Positions 8,042 to 60,985 of a stretch of DNA of 64,000 bases are shown here, one piece after another. Where the stretch lies: positions 38,130,001 to 38,194,000 of the forward strand of contig OX597823.1 of NCBI GenBank assembly GCA_951406725.2. Reading direction: 5' to 3'. The notes beneath the pieces were generated by a model, which did not search any database, was not told the DNA's origin, and saw only the letters and a list, made by a program, of their open reading frames with translations. Numbering within the stretch: position 1 is the stretch's first letter; each line of letters starts with the position of its first letter. The stretch comes from Octopus vulgaris. Taxonomy: Eukaryota. Made by a program: the position numbers and the translations under genes.

Positions 8042-8218
8042 CAGAGCAGTCACCATATTCTCTTCAATATCAGTGAACTTTGATGAGCGTAAGGTTATAT
8101 AATCAGATTGTTACCTAACATTCAATTGTATTCCTTGTGAGAAACCGATTGTTAAAATCAGCCATGATGGATATATATAATACTGTACATTTTGGATGAT
8201 GTATATATATATATATAT

Positions 8219-9055
8219 AGCAAATAAGTAACAAGGATGTCCAGATATCAGTGCATTATGGTCGTTTCATGCGGCTCCATTTAATTCATCAATGAAAACA
8301 TCACATCAGTTTGGAATAAACCACTCTCCTTGGGCGCAGACGACTGTATAGATTTCCAACATAAAGAATAAACCATTATTTTTGTAGACAACCCTTTAGA
8401 ATTCTAAGGGGTTGTAGACAATTGGCTGCATTAAATCTTATGAATGTGATAAAGATAAATACAAATGTAGCTATATCACCATTCCTCTTTCTTGACTCCC
8501 ATTATTTTTGTCTGCCACTCTAAATTGTAGTAGGCTTTTAATATACATTTTTTCCCTAAATTCATTAAATTTCTTTACTACCCACAAGGGGCTAAACACA
8601 TAGAGGACAAACTAGGACAGACAAATGGATTAAGTTGATTATATTGACCCCAGTGCATAACTGGTACTTATTTAATTGACCCCGAAAGGATGAAAGGCAA
8701 AGTCGACCTCGGCGGAATTTGAACTCAGAATGTAGTGGCAGACGAAATACCGCAAAGCATTTCGCCTGGCATGCGAACGATTCTGCCAGCTCGCTGCCTA
8801 AATTCATTTCCCTAAATTCATTCTGCCACAAAAATAGCAAATTGAAACAATGCAGTTATTTTAGTCTTTTGTACTGATAAAATTTTGCTAAAAAATAATG
8901 GTTTATCCTTTATGTTGGAAATCTATATGTTTGTCTGCATCGAAGGAGAGTGGTTTATTTCAAATTGATGTAATGTTTTTATTGATTGGTTAAATGGAGC
9001 TGCTTGAAATGGCCGTAATGCACTGATATGTGGATATCCTTATTACTTATTTGCT
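8219..9055. mobile_element. Element with ~165-bp imperfect inverted arms (8219-8385 and 8888-9055), probably Penelope pLTR-derived
   Basis: The arms are reverse-complementary (caaataagtaacaaggatgtccag... versus ...gtggatatccttattacttatttg). Each carries a decayed hammerhead layout (tgcat-cgaagga...GAAA..GTA-atgca) and resembles the 54310 and 56840 elements. Confidence 0.7.
8567..8797 (-). mobile_element. tRNA-derived SINE (family A) with target-site duplication
   Basis: The minus strand reads gcgagctggcagaatcgtt...gagttcaaattccgccgaggtcgactttgcctttcatcctttcgggg. Flanked by ttccctaaattcatt at 8552-8566 and 8808-8822. Confidence 0.85.
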
Positions 9056-9107
9056 TTTTATTCATCTAACTTTGAGCTGCATGGACTATACCAAACTGGC
9101 TTGATGC

Positions 9108-27157: not shown

Positions 27158-27282
27158 ATGTGAGGGTGTTTGACTGAGTATGTAGTATGAGCATGTTTAA
27201 ATTTTTTTTTGTCATTTAAAGAAAGTCAGGTGTTTGTAAAATTATGTGTGTATGCATGTGTACATGCACACACATACATATA

Positions 27283-27445
27283 TGCATGGATCAAAACAAT
27301 TTAATTAAAATTCATTGGTACTCCTAGTTTCAGGCTTGATGCTAGTCTTCGGCCATTTTGAATTCAAAATGGCCGAAGACTAGCATCATGCTTGAAACTT
27401 GAAGTACCAACGAATTTGAATCAAACTGTTTTAATCCATATATGT
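27283..27445. repeat. Palindrome with a 52-bp perfect core (27337-27388) and hammerhead-like arms
   Basis: tgatgctagtcttcggccattttgaa|ttcaaaatggccgaagactagcatca. Imperfect arms extend to about 80 bp per side. Confidence 0.9.
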
Positions 27446-27509
27446 AACTCCCAATAAATTTGTTGAATACCCTTCTTTTGTTTGTCCACTCACTTGTGTG
27501 TGTGTGTAT

Positions 27510-57863: not shown

Positions 57864-58546
57864 ATGGCTTAGAATTCTTGGGCTGGGTCAAAAATGAAGT
57901 CAAAAATGGTTTTCTTGGTATATTGTTTCCTTACTGAAATCTATAAGGACCCACTCACCCATCCTTGATTGTCAGTCCCTATTCTCTCTTTATCTACCAT
58001 CTAGTACCTTGAGAGTAAATCCTGATATCTCATTTCCACCATTCTTTTTCCATTTCCAGCTGGAGTAGTCATATGTATCCACTACAATAAGACACCTGTG
58101 CCCATCCCTCTCAACACCTGACATAAAGCTACCTGTTTCAATATTGCACTCCCACTTCGTGAAGGGTTCTTGCCTTGCAAGTTACTTGGTGACTTCAGTT
58201 CTGCTGGTGCAACATAAAAAGCACTCAGCACACTTCAGTGTTGGTGGTCTCATGTGGGTTGGTGTTAACAGGGTTGAATGGGTTATTTTTACTGTAGATC
58301 CTTGTCTCTTCAAGAAGACCTGCATAATAAAGAAACTAGTAGCAGCAGCAGCAGTAGTAGTAGTACCTGCCCCACCACCATCAGCACTACTACTATCACA
58401 AGAATCTGCATTTCCTACAGCAGCACTCCTCCACTACCTACCCCTACACCCACCAGCATTAATCTCATAACCAGTAATAACAGTAAAACCACTGCTATCA
58501 CATACATACATACATACATACATACATACATACATACATACATACA

Positions 58547-59710
58547 TCAAAACAAATCAAAATAGATGAACATCAATGGAATTTGTATCTTTGTGGTACC
58601 AGTGCCGGTGGCACACAAGAAAACCATCCGAACGTGGCCGTAGCCAGTACCGCACCGACTGGCCTCCGTGCTGTGGGCACGTAACAAACACCATCCGATC
58701 GTGGCCGTTCGCCAGCCTCTTCTGGCACCTGTGTCGGTGGCACATAAAAACACCATCCGAAGACCCGGCAAGACTAGTCAGGCCATAACCTGTGGCCCCT
58801 ACCTGGGACGTAGTCAGTCCACCTGTGCATACCTTCCTTCTTGTGACACTTGTGAAGACCTGTTGAGGCAAGTGAAAATCAAATCAAATCAAAACAAATC
58901 AAAATAGATGAACATCAATGGAATTTGTATCTTTGTGGTACCAGTGCCGGTGGCACACAAGAAAACCATCCGAACGTGGCCGTAGCCAGTACCGCATCGA
59001 CTGGCCTCCGTGCTGTGGGCACGTAACAAACACCATCCGATCGTGGCCATTCGCCAGCCTCATCTGGCACCTGTGTCGGTGGCACATAAAAACACCATCC
59101 GAAGACCCGGGAAGACTAGTCAGTCCATAACCCGTGGCCCCTACCTGGGACGTAGTCAGTCCACCTGTGCATACCTTCCTTCTTGTGACACTTGTGAAGA
59201 CCTGTTGAGGCAAGTGAAAATCAAAACAAATCAAAATAGATGAACATCAATGGAATTTGTATCTTTGTGGTACCAGTGCCGGTGGCACACAAGAAAACCA
59301 TCCGAACGTGGCCGTAGCCAGTACCGCATCGACTGGCCTCTGTGCTGTGGGTACGTAACAAACACTATCCGATCGTGGCCGTTCGCCAGCCTCATCTGGC
59401 ACCTGTGTCGGTGGCACATAAAAACACCATCCGAGCGTGGCCGTCTGCCAGCCTCGTCTGGCACCTGTGTCGGTGGCACATAAAAAACACCATCCGAGCG
59501 TGGCCGTTCGCCAGCCTCGTCTGGCACATAAAATCACCCACTAGACTCTCGGAGTGGTTGGCGTTAGGAAGGGCATCCAGCTGTAGAAACACTGCCAGAT
59601 CTGACTGGCCTGGTGCAGCCTTCGGGCTCCCCAGACCTCAGTTGAACCGTCCAACCCATGCTAGCATGGAAAGCGGACGTTAAATGATGATGATGATGAT
59701 GATGATGATG
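58547..59710 (+). mobile_element. RTE 3' UTR amplified as three tandem units, then the normal tail and (GAT)n
   Basis: atggaatttgtatctttgtggtaccagtgccggtggcac at 58576, 58918 and 59250 (periods 342 and 332). Homologous to 4540-5110. Confidence 0.9.
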
Positions 59711-59920
59711 ATATATATTGTCAAAATAACATATTTCAGAAAAAGAAGCACACTTTAAAGAATAGAGCAGTAAGCATTAACTTTAACTTTATGTTTAATA
59801 TATATATATATATATATATTGATAAAACGGTAAGATAACAAAAGAAAGAAAGAGACCTCAATATTATGTAAATAGAGGAAATTTATCTATACAATAATAT
59901 GTTACATTACTCGGTAGTCA

Positions 59921-59983
59921 AGATAAAACTCTGAGTTTCAGATGCCGAAGTGGAAATCCACAACACCATCTCTTCGGTTATCT
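59921..59983 (-). ncRNA. Type I hammerhead ribozyme motif with variant CCGAAGA core
   Basis: The minus strand reads agataa-CCGAAGA-gatg...catc-t-GAAAC-tcaga-GTT-ttatct, with a perfect 6-bp stem I. Confidence 0.75.
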
Positions 59984-60162
59984 GGCTATTTGAAAACGCT
60001 ATGAAAAAATACCGTTAAATAAAGGGAAATTACTGTGTTATAACTCTGCTTGCCTTCGTACTTATACATCGCTCGCATTTTTCGTCATAAAAATTATATA
60101 AAAATACATAAAAAATATATAAAAATATATAAATTCTTGGGACATAACATAGAAAGCATGTT

Positions 60163-60784
60163 CTATCTGTTTTCTTTAGGGGACCAAAAACGTAACAGAA
60201 ATTTAGTCACATGTGGGCATGATCCGAAAAGCTCTGTCCTTGTATTTAGACATGTAGTAGGGTCTAAGCTGCTTTTTCAGATAAGCCATCTCTCCATGTC
60301 GCATAGACCGCACCTTCCGCTACCGTTGGTATAGGGCTTACATCTGGCCAAAATCTTCCATTGTATGTTATAATCGACACCTTTATCTCTTAAAGACCAA
60401 ATATGATTAGATAATTCTGTCGCTTTTCTTTTGTTCCAGTGCCTAAAGCTCAAAGTGTGGTTATTGAACCTGGCCTTGAAATTACCCTCTGTAAGGCCCA
60501 CGTATTTCTTCGTCGAAATGGTGTCTTTAGTGGTTATAGAGTTTACGGTAGCTTCATATATGATGGTCTTGGACATGCAAGCTCCATTTAGCGGGCACAA
60601 TTCTTTATTCCTGCATGAACAGCTGTTTTCTTGTGTTTTTTGTATGTTATGTTTGATTATGTTTTTAAAATTGGTAGTTGAACTAAAACTAATTTTTAAA
60701 TTGTGTCTATTGAAGAGTTTCCTATAAGTATGGTTAACTGGAAAATGTCTATCTATCAGTGCTAGGAAATATTTATCTATATTG
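60163..60784 (-). pseudogene. PLE GIY-YIG endonuclease coding segment with one in-frame TGA (60277-60279)
   Basis: The frame continues past the TGA as KSSLDPTTCLNTRTELFGSCPHVTKFLLRFWSPKENR*. Confidence 0.85.
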
Positions 60785-60832
60785 TCAGAGTTTTATCTTG
60801 ACTACCGAGTAATGTAACATATTATTGTATAT

Positions 60833-60985
60833 ATCATCATCGTCGTTTAACGTCCGTTCTCCATGCTAGCATGGGTTGGACGGTTCGACCGGGGTTCTGG
60901 GAAGCCAGAAGGCTGCACCAGGCTCCAGTCTAATCTGGCAATGTTTCTACAGCTGGATGCCCTTCCTAACGCCAACCACTCCGTC
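60833..60985 (-). mobile_element. RTE extreme 3' tail (~150 bp)
   Basis: catcatcgtcgtttaacgtccgttctccatgctagcatgggttgg...gctggatgcccttcctaacgccaaccactcc. Confidence 0.85.

Follow-up and report, generated by a model that had tools for sequence, protein, structure and literature searches.

The 64,000-nucleotide stretch of Octopus vulgaris DNA analysed here (the window) carries at 59817-60832 a 5′-truncated copy of a Hydra-clade Penelope-like retroelement (PLE). Breakpoints and arm positions are numbered relative to the predicted cut of its hammerhead ribozyme (HHR), which lies between −1 and +1. The long arm (59817-60784, minus strand) spans −872 to +107 and is 96% like an intact unit taken from a tandem array of this genome. 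It comprises the 3′ end of the open reading frame (60277-60784, minus strand), encoding a CxCx5C linker, a GIY-YIG endonuclease (E = 0.0097, below the Pfam cut-off) and a CxxC motif; a 3′ UTR or pseudo-LTR upstream of the ribozyme (59989-60165, minus strand, boundaries approximate); a type I minimal hammerhead (59915-59988, minus strand), laid out as the Hydra HHRs in File S2 of Craig et al. 2021 (PMC8557442); and a 67-nt tail extension, +41 to +107 (59817-59883, minus strand), found on one arm only. In this copy the frame is closed prematurely at 60277-60279, a point through which intact copies stay open, and a PDB search with the ORF gave no match. Joined head-to-head with the long arm, without microhomology, is a short inverted arm (60785-60832, plus strand) running from −8 to about +40. 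As the first-pass annotation stated, its 60785-60831 portion is an exact 47-nt inverted copy that mirrors 59888-59934 and begins 8 nt before the cut; the element interval proposed there, 59888-60832, is too short, since it omits the 67-nt tail that extends to 59817. The long-arm end abuts an unstranded (TA)n target tract (59796-59816), a near-universal flank across copies of the family, and at 60832 the short arm, too, gives way to a short run of TA. The element is flanked, tail-to-tail, by two copies of a different repeat that has (GAT)n tails (59550-59712 and 60833-60983), and together these produce a larger apparent inverted repeat around it, and three near-tandem units of ~340 bp each, the first two 98% alike, occupy 58546-59519.

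Intact tandem arrays elsewhere in the genome consist of 2,579-2,585-bp units with a 717-residue open frame, so that, as is typical of the Hydra clade, the unit is shorter than 3 kb and has a single ORF with a reverse transcriptase (RT) and, C-terminally, a GIY-YIG domain (E = 0.018 in the intact frame, below cut-off). The family protein, which has 842 relatives at E ≤ 1e-20, contains RMRWKA (RWK), SDKTKN (DKT), CSCRNKELC (CxCx5C), CGLC (CxxC) and CPH (CxH), with CxCx5C as a linker, CxxC and CxH around the endonuclease and no CCHH motif, and TA tracts follow nearly all of 124 arm ends sampled from the family. RWK, DKT, CxCx5C, CxxC, CxH and (TA)n are among the Hydra-clade marks given in Craig et al. 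2021 (PMC8557442). By motifs, unit size and (TA)n target, the family belongs, on sequence grounds, to the Hydra-clade PLEs. A further mark of the clade, a canonical CUGANGA HHR in the pseudo-LTR, is present in an older sister subfamily and replaced by CCGAAGA in the young subfamily to which the window copy belongs. The closest named element is Hydra-1_Obim (Craig et al. 2021, PMC8557442), from which the family is separated by different HHR stems and by a protein divergence that is clear by eye in the unaligned sequences. With the Hydra-clade PLEs of that source the family has in common a unit below 3 kb, a single ORF, the motifs, the C-terminal GIY-YIG, (TA)n targets, a type I HHR with a 4+1+4 palindromic stem III, and tandem and inverted 5′-truncated copies with a tail, whereas its tail measures 67 nt against 30-40 nt in the Hydra elements described there. 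One array (L071-L072, G000:C1:57207500-57225500) has five tandem units facing two on the opposite strand, 99% alike, several of them with open 717-residue frames, and is likely a recent source locus. A metagenome scan returned four loci, one with a 3′ UTR; a Hydra-like metagenome element with 45% protein identity carries a canonical CTGAAGA hammerhead with a palindromic stem III (L306:3020-3075) and terminates in (TA)n.

On the minus strand the ribozyme comprises a perfect 6-bp stem I (AGATAA/TTATCT, 59983-59978 with 59926-59921), the core CCGAAGA (59977-59971), in which C4 at 59976 stands in place of the invariant U4, stem II (59970-59941), an extra U (59940) just before GAAAC, whose GAA occupies 59939-59937, and a near-palindromic stem III (ACTC-A-GAGT, 59936-59928); stem I, core, extra base and stem III are as the first-pass annotation described them. 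The predicted cut falls between 59927 and 59926 on this strand, and a bulged extension continues beyond stem I. The three helices open at stem I, as in type I hammerheads, and stems I and II are well supported; stem III is weak in the monomer fold (0.31) and stronger as a duplex, with a predicted HHR self-duplex of −7.4 to −15.6 kcal/mol. Among the invariant core positions C3, U4, G5, A6, G8, A9, G12, A13, A14, A15.1, U16.1 and H17, U4 alone is missing, so the invariant core is incomplete. Monomer folding is unremarkable (z = −1.4), and an Rfam scan reported no HHR at E ≤ 1 and only microsatellite noise. The identical HHR has 3,739 genomic occurrences and a control pattern has none, which shows that it is no chance pattern, and pair-keeping changes between subfamilies occur in its helices. 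Two later changes weaken the fold, namely a mismatch in the stem I extension and a C-to-U change at −14 in the young subfamily, whose U is able to pair with A9 (probability 0.92), a pairing that in the fold model may disfavour the HHR core. In File S2 of Craig et al. 2021 (PMC8557442), all 26 Hydra rows (25 families) have a CTGA core, in contrast to the CCGAAGA of the window family; an extra base precedes GAA in 19 of the 25 families, and the stem III of Penelope-3_HM is the same as here. The extra base and the palindromic stem III are hence normal for the clade, and U4C alone is unusual. The minimal PLE hammerheads of Cervera and de la Pena 2014 (PMC4209133) are likewise type I, lie in the pseudo-LTR and have a long stem II and a small palindromic helix III predicted to work as a dimer; the core variant named in its running text is U3-A8, as opposed to U4C.

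Exact 19-mers around the core, counted over the 2.8-Gb genome, number 3,739 for CCGAAGA, 559 for CTGAAGA and 110 for CCAAAGA, and the U4 copies belong mostly to the older sister subfamily, which upholds the earlier suggestion that U4C is a family-level variant and not decay. When the CCGA and CTGA cores were counted among 74 young copies selected by their tail, with the core disregarded, C4 was present in 73. That the window's C4 is a decay product or error of this one copy is therefore next to impossible in view of these unbiased young copies and the 3,739 identical ones, even if private CC variants do occur elsewhere in the window (see below). Because C4-G5 is a CpG, decay alone predicts about as many CTG as CCA copies, and since CTG is roughly five times as frequent as CCA, the U4 copies form a real subfamily. 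CpG decay was accordingly ruled out as the source of all CTG copies, these being five times the opposite-strand decay control. The CTG loci have diagnostic flanks in common as well as heavy CpG decay; in the sister-subfamily context, the first 100 of 225 matches, classified by eye, comprise 87 TG, 10 CG, 3 other and 0 CA. In an intermediate group (1,468 matches), some copies have U4 and others C4, and their stem II sequences form a stepwise series; a sample of 20 contains 14 CCGAAGA, 3 CTGAAGA and 3 other cores. C4 is thus fixed in the youngest subfamily and present in most of the intermediate group, and U4 is found in the older sister. Non-CpG divergence amounts to 1.1% for the young C4 copies, 3.3% for the U4 sister and 5.0% for the intermediates, which are heterogeneous, so that divergence fails to place the intermediate group after the U4 group. 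Every outgroup has U4, including the 25 of 25 Hydra families in File S2 of Craig et al. 2021 (PMC8557442), the L306 element and the 27337 family described below, which indicates that C4 is the derived state, one that persisted across several subfamilies. In contigs under four organism labels that cover the ribozyme, position 4 shows no other letter at 5 in 100, a measure too coarse to carry weight. A minor core, CCGATGA, which adds A7U to C4, was seen in 4 of 74 young arms, at locus L124 and others, and in both arms of one insertion.

The CC core had also been noted in a palindrome near 27337, where CCGAAGA indeed occurs twice within 27279-27446. Its extension to that family as a trait does not hold, since 39 of 43 family matches have CTG, two of the three CC matches are this insertion's own arms, and CC is private to it. 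The 27279-27446 palindrome is made of two head-to-head arms of a different repeat that also has a hammerhead (core, stem II, GAAAC, GUA); the arms are joined just 5′ of stem I, a geometry as in the window PLE family; the private CC change is common to both arms, as one template would give. A CC-type core had further been considered plausible for the arms near 8219, and there a relaxed hammerhead descriptor finds no HHR in 8206-8383 or 8891-9068. These 178-nt inverted arms are 84% complementary, have their tails outward and border (TA)n at one end; the pair looks like an old PLE-type inverted insertion.

Between the U4 sister and the young subfamily, 10 of 74 HHR positions and 32 of 182 UTR positions have changed. 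Under a structural/flexible split of HHR positions that was drawn after the changes were seen, these comprise 1 of 45 core or firmly paired positions, U4C itself, versus 9 of 29 flexible ones (p = 0.0007); for the changes after U4C, the figures, on the same split, are 0 of 45 versus 4-5 of 29 (p = 0.02-0.007). A count of core versus remaining mutations among young copies was discarded, because many of the loci had been chosen by their core. The ten other core positions and the stem III pairs are unchanged across subfamilies, and this constancy argues against a dead or irrelevant C4 ribozyme. According to that alternative, which we regard as unlikely though deserving serious weight, U4C drifted to fixation in one source lineage in which cleavage was unneeded, the fold being kept for a protein or promoter role and ends at +1 arising from RT pausing before stem III. 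HHR conservation may indeed reflect protein binding or promoter function. It is also consistent with this alternative that most arms traverse an uncut HHR and that, in a viroid hammerhead variant (Ambros and Flores 1998, as related by Perreault et al. 2011, PMC3088659), U4C is reported to lower activity in vitro considerably.

The inverted end of the window copy was placed among 124 arms, taken from 59 consecutive loci (covered by the first 100 matches to the tail, out of 3,618) and 19 tail-variant loci. Their 3′ ends fall at +107 in 61 cases and at +40 in 55 (38 directly, and 17 that read as +31 owing to a 3-nt indel), the rest being tandem read-through or near variants, and in all 37 simple inverted pairs one arm ends at +107 and the other at +40. 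The 5′ starts range from +7 to about −2580: 72 arms start upstream of −81, 31 in −81 to −52, 14 in −51 to −12 and 7 in −11 to +10. The 31 starts in −81 to −52, which projects onto ~59978-60007 of the window (minus strand), contrast with 2 in −130 to −82 (p = 2e-11), and this cluster likely marks the RNA 5′ end. Plotted against the cut, the breakpoints are no more frequent in the cut zone than in its upstream neighbourhood (7 versus 14 arms, p = 1.0), contrary to the first-pass expectation. The idea that the 5′ inversion results from reverse transcription being primed or redirected by the ribozyme cut appeals to the window arm starting 8 nt from the cut and to a small excess of starts at +1 (see below); with 7 of 124 starts in −11 to +10, no denser than in −51 to −12, with 72 of 124 upstream of −81 and with fixed ends at +40 and +107, away from the cut, we consider it very improbable. 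The window's start at −8 lies off the cut, at a common non-cut breakpoint, and its inversion is the family's ordinary head-to-head insertion form.

In L1-type twin priming, the inverted piece represents an internal, non-overlapping RNA segment; here both inverted arms hold the same 3′ region. Among the 37 pairs, the +40 arm reaches further 5′ in 15, the +107 arm does so in 13, and both start within 10 nt of each other in 9. Since the tail-less +40 arm reaches further in 15 pairs, neither arm was generally copied from the other. This speaks against snap-back or self-priming of one cDNA, or of an antisense template, at palindromes, as proposed for rotifer Penelopes (Arkhipova et al. 2013, PMC3846280), as the general route. 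The 9 pairs with nearly equal starts, folds at stem III in 15 of 38 young and about 23 of 40 older-subfamily short junctions, and eight rare variants common to both arms would fit such priming; two pairs of these variants are refetched loci or subfamily marks, and the shared variants are unusable as proof of one template for that reason. Self-priming is overall a rather improbable source of the inverted ends, and could account for the short palindromic class. The Penelopes of D. virilis and rotifers also form head-to-head inverted, 5′-truncated copies with a one-sided tail (PMC2377424; PMC3846280), and their junction palindromes have been read as self-priming, whereas here the 15 of 37 pairs exclude arm-from-arm copying. 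By a BLAST estimate made with no null, the arms overlap by 1-14 nt at 26 of 42 junctions, meet bluntly at 2 and are separated by inserted bases at 14.

Closer to the cut, a pattern search of the whole genome for arms with starts from −8 to +8 gave 271 matches, of which 100 were tallied by eye; 65 of these were kept, once indel variants (22), starts ambiguous at −8 (10), unclear cases (2) and one start at +8 had been set aside. Twelve of the 65 start at +1, versus 4.9 in simulations with chance matching (p = 0.003; 0.04 when independent events are counted). Among 38 short head-to-head junctions of the young subfamily, the stem III palindrome is the fold point in 15 and an imperfect extension of it in 5; a further 5 link −8 to about −13 through short homology, 5 are perfect palindromes with a blunt join and their centre at the cut, and 8 are of other kinds. 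Against 12 possible centres, five cut-centred palindromes have p of about 7e-5, and any neighbouring centre has at most one. All their flanks differ, so the five are independent; they include three tail variants, and each has one long and one short end. These five blunt junctions on the exact scissile position weigh against a dead ribozyme, and the small excess starting exactly at the cut is likely a footprint of cleavage, as far as genomic ends can tell. Priming or template switching at the ribozyme, which the first-pass annotation had suggested for the inverted piece, may thus stand for very short arms, with junctions at the stem III palindrome (15/38) or the exact cut (5/38), but not for inversions generally, whose starts are broad and mainly clustered 52-81 nt upstream. 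RT pausing before stem III, on the other hand, would also end cDNAs at +1. In the U4 sister, the 40 junctions derived from the element (from 50 listed loci out of 60, after 10 had been set aside by eye as unrelated; Fisher p = 0.024 versus 5/38) include no cut-centred palindrome, and about 23 of them fold at the stem III palindrome. This lack, which favours a dead ribozyme, runs opposite to the prediction of a more active U4 form; old perfect palindromes may have been lost. A dead ribozyme also draws support from the in vitro work of Frangieh et al. 2024 (PMC11167929), in which HHR mutants had no effect on insertion and no RNA ends lay at the cut.

The explanation that we favour, at a probability of about 60%, is that the window holds a truncated young Hydra-clade PLE whose source lineage fixed U4C, that cutting was likely weakened and not abolished, and that the inverted end likely consists of two joined cDNAs. 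U4C is predicted to weaken cutting by analogy with the viroid hammerhead, in which the same substitution is reported to lower activity in vitro yet to leave enough in vivo (Perreault et al. 2011, PMC3088659); the viroid U4C is a single variant, whereas here it has become the fixed state of a retroelement lineage that counts thousands of copies. Copies starting at the cut are a hint that the U4C ribozyme likely still cuts, and it would act as a dimer or with protein help. Uncut RNA would be the main template, and nicks in both strands of a (TA)n target would each prime a separate cDNA, the two then being joined head-to-head, with the fixed ends at +107 and +40 corresponding to two internal RT start sites. 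Synthesis of each cDNA would terminate at a random point, or where the RNA begins just upstream of the ribozyme, or, in rare cases, at the 5′ terminus that self-cleavage creates; the cDNA ends would then be joined, often with the stem III palindrome or a microhomology of 1-5 nt as the link. As Penelope transcripts start in the upstream pseudo-LTR (Schostak et al. 2008, PMC2377424; Arkhipova et al. 2013, PMC3846280), the RNA 5′ end would be a transcript start there and the −52 to −81 cluster a run-off product. Frangieh et al. 2024 (PMC11167929) report for PAc that the PLE protein nicks and extends both strands, that RT starts at two internal sites bounding the tail and that uncut RNA is the dominant substrate, and the 15 of 37 pairs fit the two-cDNA model, a route that PAc takes in vitro. 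As proposed for the window family, this Poseidon element has its two RT start sites downstream of the HHR, where they bound the tail, and like that family it has AT-rich targets; unlike the family, PAc has a canonical core, belongs to another clade and yields no RNA ends at the cut in that report, whereas a few genomic arms of the window family start exactly there. We further entertain, as a distinctly speculative extension, that the U4-less hammerhead stayed under selection and cuts in vivo, and that its 3′ product is copied by two RTs at once, which would make the cut-centred perfect palindromes a genomic record of cleavage; the damped ribozyme, by sparing more template from cutting, may then have helped the lineage to amplify beyond its U4 predecessor.

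The element class, inverted PLE ends with a one-sided tail and U4C in a viroid are already known from the sources cited. The literature searched on hammerheads and U4C, CCGA cores and Penelope junctions, which covered PLE-variant surveys in part, contained no case of U4C in a retroelement among the titles listed. The family bears on the question of whether PLE hammerheads cut in vivo, and for what purpose. That C4 became fixed may mean no more than that cleavage is of little consequence. The family is also a natural matched pair, with a U4 ancestor, a C4 descendant and stepwise intermediates, and it offers thousands of insertions with mappable ends. The rule for its 3′ ends, together with the 5′-end cluster, constrains how PLE inverted repeats are formed, and searches that require CUGANGA overlook the most abundant young copies in this genome.
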